Origin: Escherichia coli
GTDB lineage: Bacteria > Pseudomonadota > Gammaproteobacteria > Enterobacterales > Enterobacteriaceae
Assembly: GCF_003790525.1 (NCBI RefSeq)
Contig: NZ_CP033635.1
DNA length: 64,000 bases
Reading direction: 5' to 3' (one strand)
Both the position numbers and the translations under genes were made by a program. Position 1 is the first letter of the stretch; every line of letters starts with the position of its first letter. This document shows, in pieces, positions 12,158 through 61,569 of the stretch. Under the pieces are notes generated by a model, which saw only the letters and a program-made list of their open reading frames with translations, searched no databases and was not told where the DNA came from.

Positions 12158-12294
12158 ATGGCAAAGCCGATCATCACGCTCAATGGCCTAAAAATCGTCA
12201 TTATGTTGGGAATGCTGGTCATTATTCTCTGCGGTATCCGTTTTGCCGCCGAGATCATCGTGCCGTTTATTCTCGCATTATTTATTGCTGTTAT
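12158..12294 (+). pseudogene. tqsA: 5' fragment of tqsA (AI-2 exporter), first ~46 codons; reading frame then runs into element DNA and stops after 7 foreign codons
   Basis: ATG at 12158 encodes [45 protein letters not shown]; the remainder of the gene resumes in frame at 23729. Confidence 0.85.
12286..12294. repeat. attL core (direct repeat 'tgctgttat')
   Basis: Identical 9-mer at 23720-23728; chromosomal tqsA sequence on the left, element-specific sequence on the right. Confidence 0.7.
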
Positions 12295-12365
12295 ATATAA
12301 CTTATTTCGCTTAACTAATTGATTTAATTAAATAATTTGCACTACAAAAAGTGCCAAAAATCGCA

Positions 12366-12391
12366 AATTAACTACACCATTAACTACACCG
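12366..12391. repeat. 26-bp element-end repeat 'aattaactacaccattaactacaccg' (tandem 'ttaactacacc'), candidate integrase arm-type site, left end
   Basis: Exact 26-bp copy at 23567-23592 next to the int start; both copies in direct orientation just inside the element ends. Confidence 0.6.
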
Positions 12392-13466
12392 TTCGGCGCA
12401 CTGTATGAAACAACGTGGAACAAATAGACACAAGCGGCAGGCTATACCGTTATCATTTTTCAGCTATCCGTCATGAAGCTGGTGGATGATCACGGATAAC
12501 CAGGCATCTACAGCGCCTTAAAAAGCTGAACCCGACAAACATTTCTGCTTATCGGGTCCGATCGCTCTTTCTACTCGTGGCAGATGAGTTTACTAGGAAG
12601 GGGGGAACATTGTATCAGGCTATCCCCTTTCTGTGCTGATTCGGCTGGTGAATGATCTACTTGGGGCACTACACTTTTCGGATAGTGCGGGTATCCGGTT
12701 TTCTGCCTCATCGAATTTTAAGCCTTCTGACGGCCTGTATATCATTTCCTGTGGAGTTGCCGCCCTGATAGCGAATACTGCGGCAGCATGTGATTTACCC
12801 CCCGTTCTGTTGATGTTTGATGTGGCTGGTTGATGTGCTGCCATGTTTTCCGCCAATGGTGGAAAAGCCCACCAGCGCAACGCAGGACGCATAAAACCAT
12901 TGCGATGACTCTGGACGCAAAACCACGTTTAACGATGTTTTGCACTGAACCAGAATACTGTTCGTTTTTGTCTCGATGTCCGTACGTATTACGTCCGCAC
13001 CTAATCCGGCATCATGCCCACCAGCGTAACGCATTTTTTTAATTTCGTGGCTGTGCGTCCACCAGCTACGCCGGAATGGGGTATTCCGTTTCAACGGAAC
13101 AGGTATGACGAACATAATCGCACCTTCTCCCGAAAACGGTGCGACCTGCATCATCGAAATGGTGATTCAGCTACTCGGCGATTTTCACCATTCAGAATCT
13201 GGCGGGTGAGTTATCCAGCTTCCACCAATGGGGGATTCTGGAACAATCAACGGGTTACGCCTTATCAGCAAAAAAGCACATCAACTGTAAAGGAAATCGT
13301 TATGGTTGCTGGTGGGCTGCGTCACCATCATGGTGATGATGCTGTCCAGTCAGCCGGAACGGTTGAACAGGGTGGCTATGGGTCACTCTGTTGTGCGTTA
13401 TTTGCGTGATCCTGGTACGGGGTGACTATCTTTCAGATAGTCGGTTGCCTGGTTACACGAAAAAAT

Positions 13467-13775
13467 TTACTTCCTGCGTTTATCCTGCTTTGTATGCCCG
13501 TGCTGAATGCCCCGCAGTGGATCTTCTTTTTTCAGGTCGATCCCCATGTCCGTTAGTGTTTTTGTGGCGGCGGTTCTTATGGCACAAATCAGGTCTCTTT
13601 CCGGTTCCCGGGTTATGGTTGCCTTCCGGATGCATGCCGTTCGTCGTTCCGTTACATACTGACGCGCTTCATCACTTGCCGCCTGTTTCAGTAACTCACC
13701 CCAGCGATTAGCCGCCCGTCGCCATAAACCTTTCGCTTCCAGTTCTTCCGCTTTGTCATCATGCACCATAAGCAT
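13467..13775 (-). CDS. PerC-family-like putative transcriptional activator (copy 2)
   Basis: N-terminal MVHDDKAEELEAKGLWRRAANRWGEL resembles PerC/Pch activators (recalled) and is a paralog of the 17352-17624 ORF; start chosen at an internal Met. Confidence 0.45.
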   Translation of the reverse strand: MLMVHDDKAEELEAKGLWRRAANRWGELLKQAASDEARQYVTERRTACIRKATITREPERDLICAIRTAATKTLTDMGIDLKKEDPLRGIQHGHTKQDKRRK

Positions 13776-13883
13776 AATCCCATTGATACCTGTTAACTCT
13801 GAATGGTTGGTTTCTGTTCTTTTGATAATTTCCCGCATAGCTTATTGTATGACAGTACTGTCCCACAATAAGGAGTTGCACGC

Positions 13884-14174
13884 ATGAGAATGACTAGGCA
13901 CAAAAAACAGATTCTTGAACTCTACAAACCTGAGTATCGCGATTGGGTGCGGGTGGAGGCCGGAGATCCGCCTTTTGATGTTCGTGGTGTGACAGTGCTG
14001 CTCTATGGTTCCGAATATCGGCGATATCACATAGAGGCAACACGAAGGACGCTAAACGCTATGGTTCGTGATAAGTTGCTGGAGCGTGTGAAAGTCCGTG
14101 AGCCACGTTTTGATGTGCGTATTGGTGGCGATGGTGCGCATTGCACGGTAATCCGCTATGGCCTGGTAAGGTAA
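13884..14174 (+). CDS. hypothetical protein (96 aa), only plus-strand gene in the left half of the element
   Basis: ORF with ATG start; internal duplicated motif PPFDVRGV / PRFDVRIGG; followed by the palindrome 'cagaatgtaaatttacattctg'. No family recognised. Confidence 0.4.
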   Translation: MRMTRHKKQILELYKPEYRDWVRVEAGDPPFDVRGVTVLLYGSEYRRYHIEATRRTLNAMVRDKLLERVKVREPRFDVRIGGDGAHCTVIRYGLVR

Positions 14175-14276
14175 GCCATCGGGTAAATCAGATGATTAAA
14201 TCACCAGAATGTAAATTTACATTCTGCCAGCCACCAGCTACCCTCCTCAAAATTGAGGACCCTTTTTATCAACTGG

Positions 14277-14558
14277 TTACCGCCGCAACCGTTCCGGCTT
14301 CTTCCACTGATAAGTGTTTTTCGCGCTCTCCTGATACATCGCCACGCGTCGACGGTATGCCAGCAACTCTAGTACTCTGATTCGTATGTCGCGCATATCC
14401 ACGCCGTTAAGCTCAATACCATCACGGCGCATTACATCAGCAACAACACGCACATAATTTTCGGCGGTCACGCTGTCCGGCTGCGTGGCCTGTTCGTCAT
14501 GCTGCTGGCTGATTCCGGTAACGCGGCGGATTAATCCCAGTAGTTCGACTTCTGTCAT
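14277..14558 (-). CDS. hypothetical protein (~94 aa) immediately downstream of the cos/terS region
   Basis: ORF-track frame 14277..14756; start moved to the internal Met (MTEVELLGL...) so that it does not overlap the cos-like sequence. Function unknown. Confidence 0.4.
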   Translation of the reverse strand: MTEVELLGLIRRVTGISQQHDEQATQPDSVTAENYVRVVADVMRRDGIELNGVDMRDIRIRVLELLAYRRRVAMYQESAKNTYQWKKPERLRR

Positions 14559-14591
14559 TGTGCCCCCATCGCTCTGATAGTCTGGTGTCGT

Positions 14592-14655
14592 CGGGTCCTT
14601 TCCGGCATGTGGACCCGTTACGGGGCGTCGACCTCGCGCGTTTTCACTATTTATG
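14592..14655 (+). other. lambda-like cos site, copy A (cosN plus flanking sequence)
   Basis: 'cgggtcctttccgg...gttacggggcgtcgacctcgcgcgttttcactatttatgaaaattttt' closely parallels the phage lambda cos junction as I recall it ('...acgggtcctttccggtgatccgacaggttacg|gggcggcgacctcgcgggttttcgctatttatgaaaattttccgg'); the 12-mer gggcgtcgacct at 14623-14634 differs from the lambda cohesive end at one base. Confidence 0.75.
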
Positions 14656-14671
14656 AAAATTTTTCGGGATC

Positions 14672-14770
14672 CATGTCCGGTTTCTCTGCAAGTTAACCAT
14701 ATGAAAAATATAAAAACATGCTTTCCATGAACCGGACATGCGCAAAAAACAGACACTAAAACCGGACATC
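14672..14770. promoter_or_regulatory. cosB-like array: three 'ccggacat' repeats (one inverted, two direct) with an AT-rich spacer, candidate binding sites for the element's Nu1-like protein
   Basis: 'catgtccgg' at 14672-14680, 'accggacatg' at 14731-14740, 'accggacatc' at 14761-14770; located on the cosB side of cos copy A, where lambda has R3-I1-R2-R1. Confidence 0.5.
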
Positions 14771-14837
14771 GAACCAGTTAACCGAAAGTGTGCACAAATC
14801 ACATTCATTGCTGCGAGTGATTAACAAGTTATCGGCT

Positions 14838-15272
14838 TTACTGTTCTGTATCGGCTGATTGCTCCATGCTGGCACGGCGAACGCTTACGGCATGACGCCA
14901 CCCAGCCAGAAAGCCAGCCATTTTATTTCGTGCCTTGCTCACATCTTCCGGTGAATAGCCGTAAATATGCAAACCTTCATCAAATCGATGTTCTGTTTCT
15001 TCACTGGAGTACTCGTCACGCTCAGATGAAAGCAGCCTCGCAAACATAATTTTTTCCAGCGCACTGGTTTCTACGTGATATCCGATGGTCTGAAGATGGC
15101 TTTTACCTGAATACCAAAGCAATGTATGCCCGATGTGATAACCGCCAGACTTTCCGCGATCCGCATTAAGATACGGCATCCCCTGTTTGGTCCATGCGCG
15201 AATAGTGGTTCTGTTAACCTTGAAATGTTCAGCTATTTCCTGCTGACTTACAAAACAAGCTTTATCAATCAT
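14838..15272 (-). CDS. terminase small subunit Nu1-like DNA-binding protein (possible packaging-specificity/redirecting factor)
   Basis: N-terminus QQEIAEHFKVNRTTIRAWTKQGMPYL parallels lambda Nu1 KKQLADIFGASIRTIQNWQEQGMPVL (winged HTH); C-terminal half unlike Nu1; flanked by cos-like sites. Confidence 0.65.
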   Translation of the reverse strand: MIDKACFVSQQEIAEHFKVNRTTIRAWTKQGMPYLNADRGKSGGYHIGHTLLWYSGKSHLQTIGYHVETSALEKIMFARLLSSERDEYSSEETEHRFDEGLHIYGYSPEDVSKARNKMAGFLAGWRHAVSVRRASMEQSADTEQ

Positions 15273-15339
15273 AATGTTACCTTAACTGCATGGTTAAATA
15301 TCAATCAAGTGGTGGTGGTGTCACCTTCACGGAAAAACG

Positions 15340-15403
15340 TCATAAATAGCGAAAACGTGCGAGGTCGACGCCCCGTAACGGGTCCACATGCCGGAAAGGA
15401 CCC
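15340..15403 (-). other. lambda-like cos site, copy B (inverted copy of A, cosN plus flank, without the 'ccggacat' array)
   Basis: Reverse complement matches copy A at 62 of 64 positions; lies ~70 bp upstream of the Nu1-like gene start on the same strand. Confidence 0.7.
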
Positions 15404-15404
15404 G

Positions 15405-15430
15405 CAAAAAAAGCCGGATTTCTCCGGCCT
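15405..15430 (-). terminator. rho-independent terminator after the head-gene cluster (minus strand)
   Basis: Minus-strand hairpin ggccggagaaatccggcc followed by a T-run; related hairpin motif at 17324-17345. Confidence 0.5.
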
Positions 15431-15502
15431 TGTCTCAGATGGTTTTCAGTATGCGATAGATGTCGCCGTCATCGCCCTGGTTTGTGCCATCGTTCCCCCT
15501 GC

Positions 15503-15838
15503 TTATCGGGCCAGCGGCTGAACGGATACGCCGGAACCCGCAAAGGCGGCGCATTTTTTCGCATCGGTGTCGACGCTCTCAGGCCAGTTAACGGCGGCAA
15601 TATTGAATATCCCCGTCTTGTAACACTGTGCTGATTTCTGCTTTGACGTGTCCACAGGGTACGAGGTCAGATAAACAGCCTTGCCAGATTCCTTACCATC
15701 CCACGCCTTAAACTCGCCATTGTCTGCCAGCATCAGCGGGGTAAATTCCTGAATAACGCCAGCATCAGCGGCAAAATGTACCAGCGTCGTGGATACCTGT
15801 TGGCTGCCTGAAAATAACTCAATGTATGGAGCGTCCAT
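15503..15838 (-). CDS. head decoration protein, lambda gpD-like
   Basis: 111 aa; motifs TPLMLADNGEFKAWDG, YKTGIF, NWPE and KKCAAFAG parallel lambda gpD (TPLMLDTSSRKLVAWDG, YKSGTF, LWPE, KKRTAFAG) as recalled. Confidence 0.7.
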   Translation of the reverse strand: MDAPYIELFSGSQQVSTTLVHFAADAGVIQEFTPLMLADNGEFKAWDGKESGKAVYLTSYPVDTSKQKSAQCYKTGIFNIAAVNWPESVDTDAKKCAAFAGSGVSVQPLAR

Positions 15839-15849
15839 AGAATCCCCCG

Positions 15850-16905
15850 TTAAGCAATTTTGACGGTAACAAATTTGCGAATATCTGCCGGTACAGGCTG
15901 CGGTGCGCTGTGCGTCTGCACGTACTCAATCGCCGGATCGCCGTCCTCAATCCAGTTTTTCGGGTAGTACATGTTTTGCGTTGCGCCCGTTCTTACCGCT
16001 TCCTGATCCATAATCGCACCATATGCCACCAGCCCTTTATTGTTGGTGTTACCCAGGACCAGCAAATCAGGCTCAAGGAAATATTTTTCGGTCCCGTCGC
16101 TGTCAGTGTATTTGCCGGAATAGACGATAAGGGCCAGATCACCAAGATAGCCTTTAAAGCTCACCACTTCGCCCAGGTTTTTACAGGCCAGCTCGGCGGC
16201 GGATTCTGATCCACGGGAAAGATCGTACAGTTCACGGAATTTTTTAAAGCTGCGTAATGTGCGCCATACCTCACCGCCCATAATCATGACGTTGGCGGGG
16301 CAACCTGCCTGATCAGCATAAAGCTCGATGTCATAGATTGGGTCGTGCATGTCTTTATCCTGCTGGGACCATTTTTTACCACTGGCCTGCTGTATGATGC
16401 AGTTTTCCGGTATTTTCCAGTCGATTTCATAGCGTTCTATGCCTTCGCCCTCAATGATGTTTTTTCCGGTCGTTACCGCATTCACCGCCAGCCATTCCAC
16501 GCGCGCCTTAATGGCGTTTATCTGGCGGCGCATGTTGCCAGTAATCAGGCGCATACGGCGGTAAGTTGGATCGTTAAGCTGTGCCGGATCTTCTCCATCC
16601 ATGCGCATGATGGTCTTTGTTGGATCGATTTCGTGCTTTGGCTTCATGTAGCCTGGTTTAATCGTGCTGGTTTCGTACCCTTTATCGCGCTGGACCTGAC
16701 TACCCACCATAGGAGAACAGAACGCTGACATCGTAACCTCTTCAATGTCCAGGGTGTCCAGCATGATGTTTTGGGTGTTGAAGGTCGCCACGTTCGGGAA
16801 AAACAGCGTGGTAAACAGCGGACTAAATTTATATTCCGAAATATCCCCGCGATTCAGGTACGCGAAAAGCTGGTTAGTTGTAAGTGCCTTTGCTTTGCCT
16901 GTCAT
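15850..16905 (-). CDS. major capsid protein, lambda gpE family
   Basis: 351 aa; YKFSPLFTTLFFP and PGYMKPKHEIDP parallel lambda gpE FKFDPLFLRLFF and PGYVKPKHEVNP; similar length to gpE. Confidence 0.75.
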   Translation of the reverse strand: MTGKAKALTTNQLFAYLNRGDISEYKFSPLFTTLFFPNVATFNTQNIMLDTLDIEEVTMSAFCSPMVGSQVQRDKGYETSTIKPGYMKPKHEIDPTKTIMRMDGEDPAQLNDPTYRRMRLITGNMRRQINAIKARVEWLAVNAVTTGKNIIEGEGIERYEIDWKIPENCIIQQASGKKWSQQDKDMHDPIYDIELYADQAGCPANVMIMGGEVWRTLRSFKKFRELYDLSRGSESAAELACKNLGEVVSFKGYLGDLALIVYSGKYTDSDGTEKYFLEPDLLVLGNTNNKGLVAYGAIMDQEAVRTGATQNMYYPKNWIEDGDPAIEYVQTHSAPQPVPADIRKFVTVKIA

Positions 16906-17111
16906 TATTCACCTCCGTGAACCTGATTGATACCCAGCGCCGCACGCAAATAGGTGCGCACCTGCCAGCCTGTTGACGGCTCAACCATCGCCAGCGGATC
17001 AAGTCCTGCCGCAATGCCTGCTTTTACATTCTGCTGGTGGCGTTCCTTGAGCGCCTCCACGATGTCGGGGCTTATGTAGACCGTCACCCCGCCTTTTTTC
17101 TCTTCTGCCAT
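16905..17111 (-). CDS. hypothetical protein (68 aa), first gene of the head cluster
   Basis: ORF with ATG start, stop overlaps the capsid gene start; no family recognised. Confidence 0.4.
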   Translation of the reverse strand: MAEEKKGGVTVYISPDIVEALKERHQQNVKAGIAAGLDPLAMVEPSTGWQVRTYLRAALGINQVHGGE

Positions 17112-17323
17112 AGTCAGAAATTCCTCTTTGACTTAAAAAATCATAACTGGATGTTCATCCAGTCCTGATTATAATCATGATTGCATTTTGCGCAACAATA
17201 TTGAGTTACGTTGCAAATTATGAAATGATTATCCCGATCATGTGTGTCAGTTCACCATAAAAAACCTCGTATACAAAAGCCCCATAAGCCCCCTGTGACC
17301 TTATCGGGCTTTTTTTAGGCGTA

Positions 17324-17345
17324 AAAAAGCCGGATTGCTCCGGCT
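17324..17345 (-). terminator. rho-independent terminator downstream of the PerC-like gene (minus strand)
   Basis: Minus-strand hairpin gccggagcaatccggc followed by TTTTTT. Confidence 0.5.
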
Positions 17346-17351
17346 GTGTGC

Positions 17352-17624
17352 TCACTTCTGCGGGTAGTTGCGCCATATTGCTTTGCCAATACCAGCTATC
17401 CCCATTTGTTTTTCAGTGCGATTAACTGACCTTTTCAGAGCGCCTAAATCATCCGGCGGCTCCGGTGGCCTCTGTGCCTTACGGATACATTCCGCGCGAC
17501 GCATTGCCACCTGTTCGCGCTCCTTGTCTGTCTCCACCAGCCTCATAACTTCACCCCATCGCGCCGCCGCCCTCCGGTAAAAGCCTTTTGCCTCGAGTTC
17601 CTCCGCTATGCGGTCATGTACCAT
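17352..17624 (-). CDS. PerC-family-like putative transcriptional activator (copy 1)
   Basis: MVHDRIAEELEAKGFYRRAAARWGEV...; paralog of the 13467-13775 ORF; start placed at the internal Met just after the ssb stop. Confidence 0.45.
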   Translation of the reverse strand: MVHDRIAEELEAKGFYRRAAARWGEVMRLVETDKEREQVAMRRAECIRKAQRPPEPPDDLGALKRSVNRTEKQMGIAGIGKAIWRNYPQK

Positions 17625-17634
17625 CGTCACCCCC

Positions 17635-18045
17635 TCAGAACGGAATATCATCACCGTAAGGGTCATCGCCTCCCGCTGGTGGCTGATTACCCTGTGTGCC
17701 TGTGGTTTTGCGTCTGTTCCCGCCAGGACGTGCCGCACGGGCACTGATTACGCTGTCTGCAATAACCTGCCAGCCCTGCCGCGTTTCCCCGTTCTGTCCG
17801 GTCCACTGGCTGACCTGCATCGTGCCGGATACGCTGGCAACGTCGCCTTTTTGATGTTTAGCCAGAAAGTCGGCCTGTTTGCCAAATGCGATGACCGATA
17901 ACCATAACGTCGCCTGTCCGTCCTGTGCCTGGCCGCATGGTAAAGATACCGCCATACGCGCCAGCGTCATCGGTGTACCCTTACTGGTCTGTTTTACCTG
18001 CGGGTCGTCCACCAGCCGCCCGTAAGCTGCTATCTGTGCTGTCAT
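17635..18045 (-). CDS. ssb: single-stranded DNA-binding protein (SSB)
   Basis: 136 aa with OB-fold-like core, Gly/Pro/Gln-rich linker and the acidic C-terminal tail ...DDIPF typical of SSB. Confidence 0.7.
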   Translation of the reverse strand: MTAQIAAYGRLVDDPQVKQTSKGTPMTLARMAVSLPCGQAQDGQATLWLSVIAFGKQADFLAKHQKGDVASVSGTMQVSQWTGQNGETRQGWQVIADSVISARAARPGGNRRKTTGTQGNQPPAGGDDPYGDDIPF

Positions 18046-18284
18046 GCTGTCTGCTCTCCGGTTTTAACGTTGATGGTTGTTACCTGTTCTGCTTCGGCAA
18101 TATCCCGCTCTGTCAGCGTGGCAAAGTTTGCCGCCGTCGTTGTCATGAATGCGCTTATCAGTTCGGGATGTGCTTTCGCGTATCCTTCCCCTGTGTTGCG
18201 GTCGATGATTTTTATCGCCACCCTCAGCCAGTGCTCTGTAAGGTCAATGGCGCGGTGATCTGTCTTTTTGTGGCTTACCTTCAT
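18042..18284 (-). CDS. hypothetical protein (80 aa)
   Basis: ORF in the replication module, overlaps ssb start by 4 nt (coupled); no family recognised. Confidence 0.45.
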   Translation of the reverse strand: MKVSHKKTDHRAIDLTEHWLRVAIKIIDRNTGEGYAKAHPELISAFMTTTAANFATLTERDIAEAEQVTTINVKTGEQTA

Positions 18285-18287
18285 GAT

Positions 18288-18656
18288 TTACTCCAGAGTA
18301 CCGCTATTGCTGCTGTCGTTAACCGGATACCAGGCAAATACCATCGATTCACCACAGTGAACAAACTTCTTATCCGGCAGATAAAGGCACTCGCACATTC
18401 CCTCATCAGGACTATGCGGACTCATGCCCAGCTCACTGGTCAGCACGGGTAAGATTTCGCGGCAGGTGTTCCCCGCACCGAAATAATCAACCTCACAAAG
18501 CGCCCATGCAGCAATCGGGCTGTACCATTCCGTGCCGTCGTCGTCTTTGAACTTAGCCCACCAGCCAGGAAGGGCAGTTGATATGCTCAGTGTTTCAATT
18601 TCAGTGTTCATAAATTTACCTTCGGTATTTTGTCCTGCTGTTCGATTTTTATTCAT
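18288..18656 (-). CDS. hypothetical protein (122 aa or shorter)
   Basis: ORF directly downstream of the iteron region; Cys-containing; no family recognised. Confidence 0.45.
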   Translation of the reverse strand: MNKNRTAGQNTEGKFMNTEIETLSISTALPGWWAKFKDDDGTEWYSPIAAWALCEVDYFGAGNTCREILPVLTSELGMSPHSPDEGMCECLYLPDKKFVHCGESMVFAWYPVNDSSNSGTLE

Positions 18657-18860
18657 TGCTCACCATCTCTCACTTTTACTACTCACTTTTTAAAGCGTCT
18701 CGCTTCGTCTCACTTGAGATTTTTGTGTTTTGTATGTGCATGTTTCATAAGTGTTTTTTCACTGCTCACTTTTGAGCATGTATACAGGTGAGAAAGTGAG
18801 TAATTGTGTTAATATTTTGTAAAAACCTCACCATTACTCACTTTTACTACTCACTTTTTA
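18657..18860. repeat. iteron array, candidate replication origin ('ctcactttt' repeated ~7 times, one inverted, around an AT-rich core)
   Basis: Copies at 18669, 18682, 18709 (variant), 18765, 18793 (inverted), 18837 and 18850; 'ctcacttttactactcacttttta' occurs twice; lies immediately 3' of the rep ATPase gene. Confidence 0.6.
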
Positions 18861-20264
18861 CAGTGGTCCTACATCATCACCATCAATGTAAATCACGGCG
18901 TCTTTTTCCAGTTTGGCTAACCATCGCCGCATATTTTTCACGTCATACCCAAGCCGTTTCATGTCATCACGTAACAGCGGGATCGTGCACTTGTCGCCGT
19001 TCTGTGTGCGTGAACGGATGCACCCCCATAGCGCGGTATGGTTTTCCGTCTTGTTGCCTGCCTCCTCGATGCGCTCCAGTTCAGCAGGGGCGCGGGGAAC
19101 GTCAATCACCACCATGGACACAATTTCTTCGCCATCTGTATCGGTGAACACCTCCACGCTTTTAAGGTCGTATGCACTCTCTTTTGGCTCCTCTGCGTCC
19201 TTCATCTTCGTACACGCCGCAACCAGTGCTGTAACGTCTGAATTTTCCCTGCTGATTCGGTACTCTGCATCAAGCGCGGCACGGAATGCACTGGAACCAC
19301 GCGCCCCCTTTGTTTCATCCTTGCCGGAATGGTGAACCACCAGCACCGTGGCCCCTGTGGCCTGCTTTATCGCGTCACACCCCTGGATAAATGCGCCCAT
19401 ATCACGGGAATCATTTTCATCATTCCCACCAAAGCAACGGGCCAGCGTGTCGATCACAATCAGCCGCACATTTTCGCCCGTTCTGCTCTTAACAAGTCCG
19501 GCAGTCCTGATAACCTGCTCCACATAGTCAGGCGATGCAGGGAAAACAGGCGCGTTAATGATGCACAAATCTGTAACCACCTTGTCGTGGGTTATCTCCC
19601 ACGCCTTAACGCGGCGTTTTACGCCCATGCTGCCTTCACCAGCGATATAGATAACCGCACCCTTACTTACCCTGCGGCCTCCCCATGCCATACCTGTGGC
19701 AACATGGCACGACCAGGAAATGGCGAGGAACGATTTATAAGAACCGCTGGCCCCGTAGGTGCTGCATAATGACTCAGCCGGAATAAGCCCCTTAATGACG
19801 TAGCTTTGCTGCGCATCGAATCCCTCAGAACCCCATGAGATGGGAAGTGTGATTTTTCGCTTTCCGCCATTCATGACCAGGCTTTCCCCTCTCTCCCATG
19901 TTTCCCGTAGTCGTGGTAGCTGGTCGCTCCAGTCCTCCAGCAGTTCGAAATTTTCAGAAAGTAGCCGCGCCTCCTGGACTCCGGCGATCGCCAGTTTTGT
20001 GGCAATGGTCAGCATCTGCATATCGTCCAGGTTTCCGGCGCGTATGACCTTTACCCTGTATCGTCCTTCATCAACAATCTGTAAGTTGTCCAGTTCGCTT
20101 AACTGATAACGGCCCAGATAAACCGGAGGGATGGGATCGCCTGCTTTTTTGGCCTGTGCAATCATGTAATGTTCTGCAAAGGAGTGAGCATTATCACCCG
20201 CAAAAATAACCGCCTCAGTGTGTTTATCTTTCGGTAACAGTTTTACGTTCGGTGCAAGTTTCAT
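18858..20264 (-). CDS. replication protein with RecA-like P-loop ATPase domain (RepA/DnaB-like, satellite pri-rep type)
   Basis: 468 aa; Walker A YGASGSYKS, Walker B-like RLIVIDTL, HHSGK motif; C-terminal region possibly DNA-binding; iterons directly downstream. Confidence 0.65.
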   Translation of the reverse strand: MKLAPNVKLLPKDKHTEAVIFAGDNAHSFAEHYMIAQAKKAGDPIPPVYLGRYQLSELDNLQIVDEGRYRVKVIRAGNLDDMQMLTIATKLAIAGVQEARLLSENFELLEDWSDQLPRLRETWERGESLVMNGGKRKITLPISWGSEGFDAQQSYVIKGLIPAESLCSTYGASGSYKSFLAISWSCHVATGMAWGGRRVSKGAVIYIAGEGSMGVKRRVKAWEITHDKVVTDLCIINAPVFPASPDYVEQVIRTAGLVKSRTGENVRLIVIDTLARCFGGNDENDSRDMGAFIQGCDAIKQATGATVLVVHHSGKDETKGARGSSAFRAALDAEYRISRENSDVTALVAACTKMKDAEEPKESAYDLKSVEVFTDTDGEEIVSMVVIDVPRAPAELERIEEAGNKTENHTALWGCIRSRTQNGDKCTIPLLRDDMKRLGYDVKNMRRWLAKLEKDAVIYIDGDDVGPL

Positions 20265-20548
20265 TTCTTACCCCCTGCGACCAGCATTTCACGGATTTTG
20301 CGGATATAACTTGCAGCACGTTTCTGATTAACGGCTTTACGATGGCCCACCAGCGTGAAATCACGCCGGAACTGATAAACAGGCATAACGCAGTCATATT
20401 CGTAGCCTTCACGGCGGTAAGTGATGCGACGTTCCTCCACGCCCTTAATCATTACCGTGCCGCCGTAGTTATCACGGAAAATATCGCCGGGACGGATTTC
20501 AGGACGAGCGGGGCCGCTGGCATTAACGCCAGAATTTTTATTTTTCAT
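20261..20548 (-). CDS. hypothetical protein (95 aa), translationally coupled upstream of rep
   Basis: ORF overlapping the rep start by 4 nt; basic; no family recognised. Confidence 0.45.
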   Translation of the reverse strand: MKNKNSGVNASGPARPEIRPGDIFRDNYGGTVMIKGVEERRITYRREGYEYDCVMPVYQFRRDFTLVGHRKAVNQKRAASYIRKIREMLVAGGKK

Positions 20549-20553
20549 GTTTT

Positions 20554-20781
20554 TTATTCTCCGGTGTGCTGTTCTTTATATCTGTCGTGAATTGCCATCA
20601 CTGTATTTAATTCATTAATAACAGCCGTTAATAGCGTACGCACGGCAGAAAACATCATTGAATCAGATTCATCGCCACTTTCCTGCACATCAATTAAATT
20701 AAGTAGTAATGCGTCCATTTCCTTTGCGCGGATTAATGCCTTTTCACAATGAAAAATAACACCAAAGGGTATTTTATTCAT
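20554..20781 (-). CDS. hypothetical protein (~75 aa; ORF-track frame extends to 20823)
   Basis: First gene of the minus-strand replication operon; start uncertain (MNKIPFGV... versus the upstream Met). Confidence 0.4.
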   Translation of the reverse strand: MNKIPFGVIFHCEKALIRAKEMDALLLNLIDVQESGDESDSMMFSAVRTLLTAVINELNTVMAIHDRYKEQHTGE

Positions 20782-21060
20782 GACTCCCCTCCTGACGGAT
20801 ACGGGCGGCGAATACAGCGACACAACCGGACGGGCAACGGTTACGCGCTTCGCGTTCCGTCCAGGCGGTCACGTGGATAATTTGAGATTCTCCGGCACTC
20901 AGTGCCAGAAAACGCCACACAAAGGCGGTTTGTGTGTGCGCTAGTCGTGGGGTATGCTGTGTTCCAGCCATAATCGTTACTCCTGTTAACGGTTTGGTTA
21001 GACGCCCTGCATGTGTTACAGCACTGCGGGGCGTTGTCTTTTTAACGGCTTTCGTGATAG

Positions 21061-21104
21061 GGTGTACACCTATCAAGCAAAAACATAACGCTATAGGTGT
21101 ACAC
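21061..21104. promoter_or_regulatory. perfect 12-bp inverted repeat (gtgtacacctat ... ataggtgtacac), candidate operator abutting a small regulator gene
   Basis: Read directly from sequence; the 3' half ends 1 nt before the ATG at 21105. Confidence 0.5.
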
Positions 21105-21299
21105 ATGTCAACAGTTATTAAGCGAGATAAAAAACCAAAGGGAACAGGAAAAGCCCCCCCATTCCATATGCGAATAGCTCCAGAACTGAAAGAGCAGTTT
21201 GATAATGAGGCCAGCAATGATGGGGTAAGCCTAGCCAACTGGCTTAAAGAGTTGGGGCGCGCCGAACTAAAGCGACGCGGCATTGAACCTAAAGGCTGA
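21105..21299 (+). CDS. small basic protein (64 aa), possible ribbon-helix-helix/YlcI-YnfO-like prophage regulator
   Basis: MSTVIKRDKKPKGTGKAPPFHMRIAPELKEQFDNEASNDGVSLANWLKELGRAELKRRGIEPKG; family assignment from memory only; divergent from the replication operon. Confidence 0.4.
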   Translation: MSTVIKRDKKPKGTGKAPPFHMRIAPELKEQFDNEASNDGVSLANWLKELGRAELKRRGIEPKG

Positions 21300-21302
21300 T
21301 GT

Positions 21303-21426
21303 ATGACTGAAAAGCAGACCGATAACAAACTTTCTCTACCAGAGAATAAACCAGCAGGCTTCTTACCAAGAAAAATCCTTGATGAGATCAAACGCCGCCA
21401 GCGCCGCAAGGCCAAAGAGCAGGAAT
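21303..21426 (+). CDS. possible small protein (41 aa, Lys/Arg-rich C-terminus)
   Basis: ATG 4 nt after the preceding stop; MTEKQTDNKLSLPENKPAGFLPRKILDEIKRRQRRKAKEQE; followed by a strong hairpin terminator. Too short for the ORF track. Confidence 0.25.
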
Positions 21427-21460
21427 AGCCCACCAGCAAGCCAGCACACTGATCACATTG

Positions 21461-21490
21461 GCCACCGTGACAGGTGGCCTTTTCTTTGCC
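21461..21490 (+). terminator. rho-independent terminator (ggccaccgtgacaggtggcc + T-rich tract)
   Basis: Perfect 7-bp stem with 6-nt loop followed by ttttctttg, just after the 41-codon ORF. Confidence 0.55.
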
Positions 21491-21752
21491 CGTTATCCGG
21501 CAATTGTGGCGCTTCGCCACACGGTTGATATAATTCCCCTGCTCAGATTCATTTTTTGCGCGGCAGGTAAATTGTTCAGAAAGGCGGCTCCTTATCGGGG
21601 CCGCTTTTTTTATGTCTGAAAAACCGCGATTTTGTTGTTTTTCAGTTTCACCAGGCCGAACGAAGCCCCGCCCATGTTCGGGCGTATATCCAGTCTTCAT
21701 GGTTAAATCTCTGTATTAGTGGATGGGTGGCGGCTGTGTGCCGCCAGTCTTT

Positions 21753-21941
21753 TTAGTGAACTGCCTCGCAGCTTTCCTTCCATGCCAGAACTTCGGATAA
21801 AGACCAGCCAACGGAACGACCGCCCAGCTTACGCCGTGATGGGAATTGTCCGGCCTTTTCCAGGCGGTAGCGGCATGAGCGGCTAAGGCCTGTTAGCTTT
21901 TCGCATTCTTTTTCACGTATAAAGCGATCAGTGCTTAACAC
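21753..21941 (-). CDS. alpA: AlpA-family (Phage_AlpA) transcriptional regulator
   Basis: 62 aa; ...EKLTGLSRSCRYRLEKAGQFPSRRKLGGRSVGWSLSEVLAW... matches the AlpA HTH signature; adjacent to int. Confidence 0.75.
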   Translation of the reverse strand: MLSTDRFIREKECEKLTGLSRSCRYRLEKAGQFPSRRKLGGRSVGWSLSEVLAWKESCEAVH

Positions 21942-22315
21942 TATTGCCCCCTTTCGTTTCTTAAAGAGTTATTTCGTGTTCTATTGCGTTGGGATGTGTC
22001 TGATTGTGTCAGGGTGATTCAGAGTTGGCAAATGTTGGTGGCGGGTATTTTACAGAAACGGGGTGATTTTAATAAAAATCATTTTAATTCAGTATTATGC
22101 AAAGGCATAAAATCTCGTTTTATGCCTTTTTTCTCACTATTTAAAGCGTTATTCGCTAATGTATAAAAAACCAGTTGAGCATTAAAAATCAGCAACTTAT
22201 AAATCTGTATACTTTTTGACCTCTTGTTCGTGGTTGTTTCACGTTGTTGTGTATTGTTGCACGTTGTATCTGTGCACTTATCCAGTATGCGCATACTGAA
22301 AAAACACGAAAAAAA

Positions 22316-23563
22316 TTATTTTCTTCTGGCTACTGGTAGCGTGGTTACGTTTTCATGTGCTCCCGCCAGTATCTCCAACCGCTCCACCCACATATCCAGC
22401 GCATTGCGTTTCGCATCCAGATAACGGGAATGATTATAAACTCGCTGCATTCCTGGCATCTGGTGGCCTGTAAGCTGCTCCACGACGTGAGGATCCACGC
22501 CTAAATCGTTCAGCATCGTTGTAAAGGTGCGCCGGATGTCATGCAGTGACCATTGAGGGTGTTTTAGCCTCCTGTGCGCTAATCTGCCGTACTGCGATAC
22601 GCTGGCCTCCTGTTTCACTTCCCCCAGTAATAAGCCCGTGTGCCTGTTCTGCTCCACCAGCCGCGTGACGAACGGCAGGATCGCTTCCGGTATGGGCCGG
22701 AATATTGCGACCTTCGTTTTGCTGTGCTCCTTCGGAACGGTCCAGAGCATTTCCGTGAAATCCCACTCCCCGATCTCCGATAACCTCAGTTCTACCGTCC
22801 TGGCTCCGAAGACAATCAGGAGGCGGATTAGTGCGACGTAGTAAGGGGAAAATATTTTTTTGTCCAGTGCCTGCAATAATTCGCCCAGTTCTTTGGTGCT
22901 TAAGACACGTTCGCTTATATCCGGTTTTTTCCCAACGTCCGCCACGTTCAGATCGTCCAGAACGTTGCTGATTGCATAGCGCCGCCTCCGGCAAAACTTA
23001 AGCGCCTGTTTGCACGCCTGTAGCACGAATCCGGCAGTAACAGGCGTTCGCTTTGCCACCCGATCAAAACAGGCCAGCCAGTGCCGTAGCTCGCATTTAT
23101 CCAGCGGCATAGCACCAATGTGCTGTATTACGTGATTATTAAGTCGCCTTTTCAGGGCGATATAATCCACGCGGTTTTCCTTTACGTAAGACTCAAGCCA
23201 GTAGGTGAGCGCATCTCCAACCGTTACAGGCTTTAACGCTTCCTGCATGGTGTAATTCATCTCATGACGTGGATTTTTCCCCTCAGCCAGCCATGCGCGA
23301 CACTGGGCGGCTTTTTCCCTGGCTGATTTCAGGCTCAGATCAGGATAATTTCCCAGCTTAATACGTTCCGGTCGTGTCTCTCTTCCCGTTCCGGCCCTGT
23401 AAGTGAAATACCAGGTTAAAAGGCCGCTGGTTGAATGCCTGACGCTCAGATTTCCACCGTCATTAAGAAAGGCTGTTTTTTGGGCGGGTGTGCCGTTGAT
23501 TTTCCTTAGCTGTGTATCGCTCAGCTTGTTAAGTGCTCTGGTCATAATTTTGAATCCGGTCAT
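22316..23563 (-). CDS. int: tyrosine site-specific integrase (P4-type)
   Basis: ~415 aa; N-terminal arm-binding-like region, C-terminal catalytic motifs (HDIRRTF, GHQ..VYNHSRY); located at the element's right end next to the arm-type repeat. Exact start uncertain (GTG/ATG/ATG cluster). Confidence 0.85.
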   Translation of the reverse strand: MTGFKIMTRALNKLSDTQLRKINGTPAQKTAFLNDGGNLSVRHSTSGLLTWYFTYRAGTGRETRPERIKLGNYPDLSLKSAREKAAQCRAWLAEGKNPRHEMNYTMQEALKPVTVGDALTYWLESYVKENRVDYIALKRRLNNHVIQHIGAMPLDKCELRHWLACFDRVAKRTPVTAGFVLQACKQALKFCRRRRYAISNVLDDLNVADVGKKPDISERVLSTKELGELLQALDKKIFSPYYVALIRLLIVFGARTVELRLSEIGEWDFTEMLWTVPKEHSKTKVAIFRPIPEAILPFVTRLVEQNRHTGLLLGEVKQEASVSQYGRLAHRRLKHPQWSLHDIRRTFTTMLNDLGVDPHVVEQLTGHQMPGMQRVYNHSRYLDAKRNALDMWVERLEILAGAHENVTTLPVARRK

Positions 23564-23566
23564 CAC

Positions 23567-23592
23567 AATTAACTACACCATTAACTACACCG
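23567..23592. repeat. 26-bp element-end repeat (same as 12366-12391), right end, immediately upstream of int
   Basis: Exact 26/26 identity with the left copy. Confidence 0.6.
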
Positions 23593-23719
23593 ATCGTTGC
23601 ACAAAGGGCTACAACGTGAAACAAGCTGGAACAAGAAAAATCACAAATTTGTTTATAATCAAAAACATAATGCACAACCTGAAACATTATGAAACGGCAA
23701 AAAACACTAATTGATAAAG

Positions 23720-23728
23720 TGCTGTTAT
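23720..23728. repeat. attR core (direct repeat 'tgctgttat')
   Basis: Identical to 12286-12294; element sequence on the left, tqsA sequence on the right. Confidence 0.7.
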
Positions 23729-29236: not shown

Positions 29237-30619
29237 ATGGAAAAGAAACTGGGACTGAGCGCACTCACCGCGCTGGTATTAAGCTCAATGCTGGGCGCGG
29301 GTGTTTTCAGTCTGCCGCAAAATATGGCGGCAGTTGCCAGCCCGGCAGCACTGCTCATCGGCTGGGGTATTACTGGCGCTGGCATTTTATTGCTGGCCTT
29401 TGCCATGCTGATCCTCACGCGCATTCGTCCCGAACTTGACGGCGGTATCTTTACCTATGCCCGCGAAGGGTTTGGCGAGCTAATCGGCTTTTGTTCCGCA
29501 TGGGGATACTGGCTGTGCGCAGTCATCGCCAACGTCTCCTATCTGGTGATCGTTTTTTCCGCGTTAAGCTTTTTTACGGACACGCCGGAATTGCGCCTGT
29601 TTGGCGATGGTAATACCTGGCAATCGATAGTCGGTGCATCGGCTTTATTGTGGATTGTTCACTTTTTGATCCTGCGCGGGGTGCAAACCGCTGCCAGCAT
29701 TAACCTGGTGGCAACACTGGCAAAACTGTTGCCGCTGGGTCTGTTTGTTGTGCTGGCGATGATGATGTTCAAACTGGATACCTTCAAGCTCGACTTCACC
29801 GGACTTGCACTTGGCGTACCCGTTTGGGAACAGGTGAAAAACACCATGCTGATCACCCTGTGGGTTTTCATTGGTGTGGAAGGTGCCGTGGTTGTTTCTG
29901 CGCGTGCGCGTAATAAACGTGATGTTGGCAAAGCGACACTGCTGGCGGTTCTCTCCGCTCTGGGCGTTTACTTGCTGGTAACGCTGCTTTCGCTGGGTGT
30001 GGTGGCACGTCCTGAACTGGCTGAAATTCGTAACCCGTCAATGGCCGGTCTGATGGTGGAAATGATGGGACCATGGGGCGAAATCATCATCGCAGCCGGT
30101 TTGATCGTTTCCGTTTGCGGCGCGTACTTAAGCTGGACCATCATGGCGGCAGAAGTTCCGTTCCTGGCCGCCACTCATAAAGCATTCCCGCGCATTTTTG
30201 CGCGCCAGAACGCACAAGCTGCGCCATCCGCCTCACTGTGGTTGACCAACATCTGCGTGCAAATTTGTCTGGTGCTCATCTGGCTGACCGGTTCCGATTA
30301 CAACACATTGCTGACCATCGCCTCAGAAATGATTCTGGTGCCCTATTTCCTGGTCGGCGCGTTCTTGCTAAAAATCGCAACCCGTCCACTGCATAAAGCG
30401 GTAGGTGTCGGTGCCTGCATTTATGGCTTATGGTTATTGTACGCCTCTGGTCCAATGCACTTGCTGTTATCCGTTGTTCTGTATGCACCGGGGCTGCTGG
30501 TTTTCCTGTACGCGCGTAAAACGCATACCCATGATAATGTACTGAATCGTCAGGAAATGGTGCTGATTGGCATGCTGTTAATTGCCTCAGTTCCGGCGAC
30601 CTGGATGCTGGTGGGATAA
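29237..30619 (+). CDS. ydgI: APC-family amino acid antiporter (ArcD-like arginine/ornithine antiporter homolog)
   Basis: 460 aa polytopic membrane protein; K-12 gene order. Confidence 0.85.
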   Translation: MEKKLGLSALTALVLSSMLGAGVFSLPQNMAAVASPAALLIGWGITGAGILLLAFAMLILTRIRPELDGGIFTYAREGFGELIGFCSAWGYWLCAVIANVSYLVIVFSALSFFTDTPELRLFGDGNTWQSIVGASALLWIVHFLILRGVQTAASINLVATLAKLLPLGLFVVLAMMMFKLDTFKLDFTGLALGVPVWEQVKNTMLITLWVFIGVEGAVVVSARARNKRDVGKATLLAVLSALGVYLLVTLLSLGVVARPELAEIRNPSMAGLMVEMMGPWGEIIIAAGLIVSVCGAYLSWTIMAAEVPFLAATHKAFPRIFARQNAQAAPSASLWLTNICVQICLVLIWLTGSDYNTLLTIASEMILVPYFLVGAFLLKIATRPLHKAVGVGACIYGLWLLYASGPMHLLLSVVLYAPGLLVFLYARKTHTHDNVLNRQEMVLIGMLLIASVPATWMLVG

Positions 30620-55855: not shown

Positions 55856-58552
<2,697 letters not shown>

Positions 58553-60934: not shown

Positions 60935-61569
60935 TGAACAAAGCAAAACGCCTGGAGATCCTCACTCGCCTGCGTGAGAACAATCCTCATCCCACCACCG
61001 AGCTTAATTTCAGTTCGCCTTTTGAATTGCTGATTGCCGTACTGCTTTCCGCTCAGGCGACCGATGTCAGTGTTAATAAGGCGACGGCGAAACTCTACCC
61101 GGTGGCTAATACACCTGCAGCGATGCTTGAACTGGGCGTCGAAGGGGTGAAAACCTATATCAAAACCATTGGGCTTTATAACAGCAAAGCAGAAAATATC
61201 ATCAAAACCTGCCGTATCTTACTGGAACAGCATAATGGCGAGGTTCCGGAAGATCGTGCTGCGCTTGAAGCCCTGCCTGGTGTAGGTCGTAAAACAGCCA
61301 ACGTCGTATTAAACACTGCATTCGGCTGGCCGACTATTGCTGTCGACACGCACATTTTCCGCGTTTGTAATCGTACTCAATTTGCGCCGGGGAAAAACGT
61401 CGAACAGGTAGAAGAAAAGCTACTGAAAGTGGTTCCGGCAGAGTTTAAAGTCGACTGCCACCATTGGTTGATCCTCCACGGGCGATATACCTGCATTGCC
61501 CGCAAGCCCCGCTGTGGCTCTTGTATTATTGAAGATCTTTGTGAATACAAAGAGAAAGTTGACATCTGA
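60934..61569 (+). CDS. nth: endonuclease III (DNA glycosylase/AP lyase)
   Basis: 211 aa, HhH-GPD domain and C-terminal 4Fe-4S cluster (CIARKPRCGSCIIEDLC). Confidence 0.92.
   Translation: MNKAKRLEILTRLRENNPHPTTELNFSSPFELLIAVLLSAQATDVSVNKATAKLYPVANTPAAMLELGVEGVKTYIKTIGLYNSKAENIIKTCRILLEQHNGEVPEDRAALEALPGVGRKTANVVLNTAFGWPTIAVDTHIFRVCNRTQFAPGKNVEQVEEKLLKVVPAEFKVDCHHWLILHGRYTCIARKPRCGSCIIEDLCEYKEKVDI

Follow-up and report, generated by a model that had tools for sequence, protein, structure and literature searches.

What is the function of a dense cluster of short repeats that lies just behind a replication gene in the E. coli chromosome? We addressed this question for positions 18657-18860 of the window, by which we mean the whole 64-kb stretch of DNA that was analysed. 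These 204 nt form the densest repeat stretch of that length within the 64 kb, and their GC content is 34%, the value for the window being 50%. A sequence-only reading of the same DNA had counted about seven copies of CTCACTTTT, one of them inverted, and the recount agreed: five copies are exact and lie on the plus strand (18669, 18682, 18765, 18837, and 18850), one with a single mismatch is inverted (18792-18800, minus strand), and one, CTCACTTGA at 18709, carries two mismatches. The 24-mer CTCACTTTTACTACTCACTTTTTA, which had been noted as occurring twice, was found at 18669 and 18837 and at no further position in the window; it sits inside a 37-nt direct repeat (18659-18695 and 18827-18863) whose two units are 92% identical. 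When sites were counted by their 5-nt core, 10 were obtained (on the plus strand, eight CTCAC and two GTGAG), and a degenerate one, GCGAG on the gene strand and CTCGC on the plus strand, brought the number to 11. Six of the seven copies of CTCACTTT in the whole 64 kb also fall inside the array.

The expected number of GTGAG sites per 204 nt was 0.28, whereas 10 were observed (Poisson P ~6e-13), and the array ranked first when every 204-nt window of the 64 kb was scanned for any 5-, 6-, or 7-mer, indicating that the clustering is not due to chance. The heptamer AAGTGAG was present in seven copies, compared with a maximum of three to four in ten Markov-1 simulations. The surrounding island contains 23 GTGAG sites, of which 10 lie within these 200 nt and the others are scattered singly; no second iteron cluster was found elsewhere in the island. 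Tandem Repeats Finder reported only a 2-copy 10-nt unit (S7-S8 in Table 1), and the array is interspersed rather than head-to-tail.

The array had been described as lying 3' of the replication gene. This is correct in the orientation of the gene, but the genes are on the minus strand, and the motif on the gene strand is therefore AAAAGTGAG. The reported overlap with the rep stop codon was also found, and it amounts to a single base, 18858 (TAA, 18858-18860). As listed in Table 1, the array fills the entire gap from the last base of this stop codon to 2 nt before the next ATG, and the neighbouring genes are all on the minus strand. On the gene strand, the stop codon is followed by S1-S3, an AT-rich stretch of 26 nt, the inverted pair S4-S5, a palindrome, S6, an A-rich stretch of about 47 nt, S7 and S8, S9-S11, and the ATG. 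The two 37-nt units and the internal sites surround the AT-rich stretches, that is, iteron sets flank AT-rich DNA, which is the arrangement of a PICI origin.

Table 1: Positions of the sites in the repeat array, of the rep gene, and of landmarks in the surrounding island, numbered as in the window.
Feature	Position	Strand	Remark
Iteron S1 AAAAGTGAG	18850-18858	-	Its first A doubles as the final base of the rep stop codon
Iteron S2 AAAAGTGAG	18837-18845	-	13 nt after S1
Iteron S3 ATGGTGAG	18827-18834	-	10 nt after S2; completes the rep-proximal 37-nt unit (S1-S3)
AT-rich stretch 1	18801-18826		Separates S1-S3 from S4-S5, which have the opposite orientation; lowest duplex stability in the origin
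Iteron S4 AAAGTGAG	18793-18800	+	Inverted relative to the other sites
Iteron S5 CAGGTGAG	18785-18792	+	Inverted
Palindrome TGTATACA	18779-18786		Between the inverted pair and S6
Iteron S6 AAAAGTGAG	18765-18773	-	Central, direct
AT-rich stretch 2	18718-18764		A-rich on the gene strand, central between the two iteron sets; conserved A-tract and AAACA
Iteron S7 TCAAGTGAG	18709-18717	-	Two mismatches to the motif
Iteron S8 CGAAGCGAG	18700-18708	-	Degenerate here; GTGAG in relatives L002 and L090
Iteron S9 AAAAGTGAG	18682-18690	-	Exact motif
Iteron S10 AAAAGTGAG	18669-18677	-	Exact motif
Iteron S11 ATGGTGAG	18659-18666	-	Stops 2 nt short of the ATG at 18656; completes the distal 37-nt unit (S9-S11), which repeats the S1-S3 unit
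Downstream ORF, 122 aa	18288-18656	-	PHROG 27268, unknown function
rep, predicted initiator-helicase, 468 aa	18858-20264	-	ORF; Pfam AAA_25; PHROG 2850; RSF1010 RepA matches; AlphaFold2
Part of rep encoding the predicted C-terminal winged helix (residues 394-468)	18861-19085	-	AlphaFold2 model of the domain alone
Asn444 codon AAT	18933-18935	-	Residue just before the predicted recognition helix (445-454)
DUF4222 gene	20261-20548	-	Overlaps the rep start (ATGA); travels with rep
Island-encoded SSB, probable replicon accessory	17635-18045	-	PHROG 44, E 4e-41; RefSeq annotation
Lambda-E-like major capsid protein, 351 aa	15850-16905	-	Homologue of EcCICFT073 c1499
D-like decoration protein	15503-15838	-	Homologue of the neighbour of c1499 in EcCICFT073
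terS-like/HTH gene, 144 aa	14838-15272	-	Flanked by a 78-nt inverted repeat
Integrase gene	22316-23566	-	Just inside the int-proximal att core
Distal att core ATAACAGCA	12286-12294	-	Island end inside tqsA; exact match
Int-proximal att core ATAACAGCA	23720-23728	-	Island end; exact match

The AT-rich core noticed in the array resolved into the two stretches of Table 1, neither of which is extreme in duplex stability. The nearest-neighbour dG of the 25-mer 18801-18825 was -24.6 kcal/mol, which made it the fourth least stable 25-mer of the island. Stretch 1 is not conserved, its place being taken by GC-richer DNA in EcCI042-type origins, and the palindrome is kept as TGTATA(C/T)A in 12 of 12 aligned E. 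coli-type origins. Consensus scans of 18600-18900 for DnaA boxes, IHF and Fis sites, and GATC gave no match. Neither a sigma-70-like promoter nor an intrinsic terminator after rep was detected in 18300-19200, leaving a promoter-operator reading without support. An Rfam scan of the island returned no RNA family that would explain the repeats. Its sole match, to the SymR antitoxin RNA, was below threshold (24.7 bits, gathering score 61, E 0.43) and most likely noise; it lies far from the origin, in the interval that separates alpA from the icd-like gene (20966-21038, plus strand). At the distal end of the array (window 18654-18666), S11 (GGTGAG) resembles a ribosome-binding site, and the RefSeq start of the downstream gene is 18611, 45 nt later than the ATG at 18656. 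Because S11 ends 2 nt from this ATG, Rep binding could affect translation of the next gene, or else 18611 is the true start.

The protein encoded by rep is named 'helicase RepA family protein' in RefSeq. It matched Pfam AAA_25 with an E-value of 6e-42 and PHROG 2850 over its full length, and its core matched RSF1010 RepA in an HMM comparison with 1g8y (E 5e-9). Foldseek aligned the protein with 1nlf, 1olo, and 1g8y (E 5e-12 to 8e-10, TMt 0.68-0.71). The best solved relatives of the core were RSF1010 RepA, RadA/Rad51, KaiC, and T7 gp4, and the Walker A motif, GASGSYKS, is invariant in relatives. These alignments and the predicted fold make the core a homologue of RSF1010 RepA, a hexameric replicative helicase. 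NCBIfam gave only far-sub-threshold RadA/RadB matches. Among GenBank phage records, no full-length relative of more than 60% identity was found, the best match being a mis-filed Salmonella chromosome contig, and the idea that this Rep type is a phage replicase was rejected on that ground.

The AlphaFold2 monomer model of the whole protein (pLDDT 83) divides Rep into an N-domain (residues 1 to about 126), a RepA/RecA-fold core (about 145-395), and a C-terminal winged helix (about 400-468). When the C-domain was modelled alone, the pLDDT was 92, and the model showed three helices (407-421, 428-437, and 445-454) followed by a beta hairpin. The top matches of this domain in a fold search against the PDB were all winged-helix DNA binders, with weak E-values of 0.1-0.5 that pointed to no specific family. 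The third helix of a winged helix is usually its recognition helix. The N-domain, which is alpha/beta in the model, had no match in Pfam or the PDB and no informative match in PHROG. The three domains of Rep recombine independently (A1/A2 alignments; L087-L097), making the protein a three-part mosaic; this implies frequent recombination at the domain boundaries and makes the contributions of each domain separable. Among E. coli islands, the same Rep core also occurs with a different C-domain.

The element around rep is, from its sequence, an 11.4-kb PICI inserted in tqsA (window 12286-23728), with direct ATAACAGCA repeats at its two ends. In the identical RefSeq locus, tqsA is annotated as two pseudogene fragments. 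The gene order is int, alpA, icd-like, DUF4222, rep, ssb, two perC, capsid, decoration, and rpp/terS-like, and nearly all of these genes are on one strand, as in other PICIs, which measure ~8-15 kb, have their own integrase, a specific att site, and alpA, and lack a complete set of phage structural or lysis genes. Genes for a portal, a protease, or a large terminase were not seen in the island. Most of the E. coli-type relatives examined likewise have an SSB gene downstream of their origin. The terS-like gene is flanked by inverted-repeat arms of 78 nt (14592-14669 and 15327-15404; 91% complementary), each of which contains the lambda-cosN-like sequence GGGCGTCGACCT (14623-14634 on the plus strand and 15362-15373 on the minus strand). 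By their arrangement, these arms and the gene between them probably correspond to cos1/cos2 and the Rpp gene of EcCICFT073 (PMC6739421). A lambda cosN-like pattern at the origin itself was considered and rejected, the pattern being found at these two places instead. Two extra exact copies of ATAACAGCA lie outside the island (30462-30470, minus strand; 61178-61186, plus strand); with four copies seen in the window and 0.5 expected, the extra ones may be due to chance. A 96-nt tandem repeat at 58082-58503 (4.4 copies, 91% identical, frame-length units) is probably a repeat region already known from a housekeeping gene (rsxC-like), with no relation to the island. An identical copy of the rep-ori region is present in E. 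coli PKF11, and related rep-ori DNA was found in 1261 of 5426 complete E. coli genomes, with 1755 of 1756 places being chromosomal.

In Gram-negative PICIs, two iteron sets with an AT-rich region between them make up the origin, which is found immediately 3' of pri-rep; all Gram-negative PICIs examined have this layout (PMC6092414). Because this layout had already been described, the sequence-only reading of the array as a replication origin is supported. Its proposal that a rep gene is directly followed by an iterated origin of PICI type agrees with the RepA-family helicase, with the EcCI042-like att site and gene content, and with the published layout. The locus shows every sequence-level feature of the published class of Gram-negative PICI origins and, at that level, is a member of it. 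We consider it very probable that the array is the vegetative replication origin of an E. coli PICI integrated in tqsA.

The closest published island is EcCI042, which is listed together with EcCIK1516 at the att core ATAACAGCA in tqsA (PMC6092414 Table S1). It shares with the present island this att core, the tqsA target, the gene order, the position of the origin, the GTGAG core, and the TGTATACA centre, and its Rep belongs to the same family, with 63% identity to that of the window over the full length. In EcCI042, by contrast, GC-richer DNA takes the place of the third proximal site and of AT-rich stretch 1, and the downstream gene is different. EcCI042 showed no transfer in published tests, and the Rep type found here, designated the 'EcCIO42 allele', was described by sequence only (PMC6092414 Fig. 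S10). Rep- and ori-dependent replication was shown only for EcCICFT073, whose pri-rep-ori fragment maintained a temperature-sensitive plasmid only when rep and ori were both intact (PMC6092414). EcCICFT073 resembles the present locus in island type, in gene order, and in an origin that adjoins the 3' end of pri-rep and has about 11 short iterons distributed over both strands. However, its eleven sites are GGTAGA/TCTACC instead of GTGAG, and its Pri-Rep, which has 584 aa and is annotated as a DNA primase family protein, differs in its C-terminus and in its ATPase, an unrelated, SF3-like helicase; the origin tested in EcCICFT073 thus belongs to a different helicase type. The two proteins are homologous only over their first 126 residues or so (window 19887-20264, minus strand; L099 4742-5134; 47% identity, E 8e-28). 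The N-domain is a portable domain, joined to two different helicase types.

The sequence-only reading had also likened the locus to a SaPI replicon. SaPI Rep is an AAA+ self-loading helicase with an N-domain of no known function and a C-terminal winged helix that binds 5-6-nt iterons, and the SaPI ori comprises 6-12 iterons in both orientations immediately downstream of rep, with an AT-rich centre (PMC9371898). The present locus shares with SaPIbov1, SaPI1, and SaPI5 an initiator-helicase, a C-terminal winged helix (predicted here), and iterons 3' of rep, and the prediction together with the covariation described below suggests that this winged helix specifies the iteron, as it does in SaPI Rep. 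The likeness holds for the layout but not for ancestry. The motor of SaPI Rep is AAA+ (MCM/SF3-like), whereas that of the window's Rep has the RecA fold of RSF1010 RepA, DnaB, and RadA and is not its homologue; lacking the defining AAA+ core, the protein falls outside the SaPI Rep family. The resemblance to SaPIs is one of layout and probably of mechanism, but not of descent of the motor.

Other replicons resemble the locus in part. RepA of RSF1010 (IncQ), a hexameric replicative helicase, provides the closest solved structure to the Rep ATPase core, with homology in sequence and fold that includes Walker A and B. IncQ RepA has no DNA-recognition domain, and a separate protein, RepC, reads the IncQ iterons; in contrast, in the model of the window's Rep, the helicase is joined to a winged helix of its own and to an additional N-domain. 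The classical iteron plasmids with Rep_3 initiators (pPS10, F, R6K, and RK2) share with it short, directly repeated initiator-binding sites beside an AT-rich unwinding element and recognition by winged helices. Initiators of the Rep_3 type are not helicases and need DnaA and DnaB-DnaC, whereas no DnaA box was found at the present locus, and its Rep combines a helicase core with only one winged helix in place of the tandem winged helices of a non-helicase initiator. The alpha protein of phage P4 is likewise a combined initiator-helicase that is encoded by a satellite and binds repeated sites, but it is a primase with an SF3 helicase, and the P4 repeats are different and split between ori and crr. 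PICIs and P4 have been judged to be independent lineages (PMC6092414).

To compare the locus with its relatives, rep homologues were collected with their 3' flanks from 5 E. coli loci, 80 loci representing one genome per species, 11 loci chosen by protein, and EcCI042. The layout was counted in loci with an intact Rep C-terminus, requiring at least four sites within 300 nt after the stop codon. It was present in 75 of 91 loci; the other 16 had fewer than four sites by simple counting. The hosts include Escherichia, Salmonella, Xenorhabdus, Serratia, Pectobacterium, Yersinia, Morganella, Enterobacter, and an Oceanospirillaceae MAG. Aligned origins share a scaffold of AAAAGTG-G flanks, the inverted pair, TGTATA(C/T)A, and the A-tract. 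In E. coli relatives whose rep DNA is 88-94% identical, GTGGG replaces GTGAG in every copy, the inverted and degenerate ones included, and further clades use GTGCG or GTGGGGGA/ATGGGGGA. A change of this kind, in which all copies move together, would be expected if one protein read them all. In three relatives (L087, L092, and L095), the gap after rep is longer (about 410-480 nt) and contains a smaller second cluster of the same iterons, about 230-480 nt past the rep stop, with an inverted site beside a TATATATA centre; this cluster may be a second half of the origin or a control locus.

The identity of the reader could be narrowed by covariation. Residue 444 of Rep was located in the relatives as the x of K-[x]-F/M/L-x-R-W, and base 4 of GTG[N]G was found to follow it: Asn goes with A, His or Lys with G, and Ser or Gly with C. 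This rule was true in 74 of 75 loci, and the sole exception was a counting artefact in a GGGGG-type origin. Predictions made in advance from residue 444 were correct in 11 of 11 cases, and EcCI042 also fits, with Asn and GTGAG. About seven independent switches of base 4 were placed on a C-domain tree built with the residue-444 column masked. Across the 75 loci, residue 444 explained 94% of the information at base 4 and the next best column 67%; among 17 full-length E. coli-type Reps, column 444 alone, out of the whole protein, separated A-type from G-type origins. Asn usually contacts adenine, and His and Lys usually contact guanine. Taken together with the modelled fold, the covariation leads us to propose Asn444 as the reader of base 4 (A) of the iteron, and it suggests that one residue of the helicase decides which repeat sequence Rep reads. 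The N-domain was rejected as the iteron reader, since it is common to EcCICFT073 Pri-Rep, whose GGTAGA iterons are unrelated, and therefore does not set the iteron type.

Three other explanations of the repeats were weighed against an origin. The one that survives best, although we regard it as improbable, is that the repeats are Rep-binding sites with a mainly regulatory role and that initiation occurs elsewhere; the sites could act by titration or handcuffing in copy control, by autoregulation, or as a roadblock or translational control for downstream genes. The covariation in the alignments establishes a specific relationship between Rep and the DNA and not initiation as such, and it is compatible with this explanation, as are the ribosome-binding-site-like position of S11 and the second, more distal cluster in the three relatives mentioned above. 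However, the island has no other iteron cluster at which initiation might take place, its GTGAG sites being concentrated here, and the layout matches origins shown to work in EcCICFT073 and in SaPIs. Plasmid iterons serve both initiation and control, and the two roles are not mutually exclusive.

Less probable still is that the repeats are sites for another protein, such as PerC, AlpA, the DUF4222 protein, or a packaging protein that would use them as a pac- or cosB-like site. Short intergenic repeats between co-oriented genes are indeed also typical of operators and terminase-binding sites, and DUF4222 travels with rep. Nevertheless, the iteron type goes with one residue of Rep, and none of the columns of the DUF4222 protein segregates with it; the latter was rejected as the iteron reader for this reason, and one relative (L091) has the array without a DUF4222 gene upstream. 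An operator is also disfavoured by the empty promoter and terminator scan of 18300-19200, and a packaging site by the cos-like sites elsewhere in the island (14623 and 15362), as published for cos1/cos2 of EcCICFT073. Chance clustering, or a functionless low-complexity AT-rich spacer, hardly merits consideration: short motifs do recur more often in AT-rich DNA, but besides the statistics given above, the layout is conserved across gammaproteobacterial orders with all copies changing in concert, and the comparative data refute this explanation.

If the array is the origin, replication of the island could proceed as follows. Induction by a helper phage would lead to expression of the rightward operon of the island, including the 468-aa Rep. 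The C-terminal winged helices of Rep would then bind the eleven GTGAG-core iterons, with Asn444, at the start of the recognition helix, reading the A at base 4. The sites so occupied would be three after the stop codon, an opposed pair, one central site, two more, and a second triplet. Bound Rep would presumably assemble into one or more rings through its RSF1010-RepA-like core and open either AT-rich stretch 1 (18801-18826) or AT-rich stretch 2 (18718-18764). Rep may then load itself as the replicative helicase, and host primase, host polymerase, and the island SSB would complete the fork.

On balance, we lean towards a broader interpretation of the comparative data. Residue 444 (Asn, His/Lys, or Ser/Gly) would dictate base 4 of GTG[A/G/C]G, and N-to-H switches accompanied by concerted change of about 11 sites would repeatedly have created mutually non-cross-reacting replicon specificities among islands that share a host. 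A RecA-fold helicase and the AAA+ SaPI Rep would also have converged on one layout, namely, a self-loading helicase with a C-terminal winged helix and an origin just 3' of its own gene. In the literature found, E. coli PICI iterons were treated only by Fillol-Salom 2018 (PMC6092414); none of this literature described the single-residue/single-base rule, which is correlative, or mentioned two unrelated helicase folds sharing one origin layout.

The origin layout has already been described for E. coli PICIs, and in kind the locus is nothing new; its rep-ori family is very common in E. coli. PICIs, by which virulence and defence genes are spread, have to out-replicate their helper phage. The origin and initiator of a PICI decide which islands can coexist or cross-activate in one cell, and the single-residue rule is a simple handle on this replicon specificity. 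The residue-444 rule could serve the design of orthogonal replicons and the typing of islands from sequence alone.
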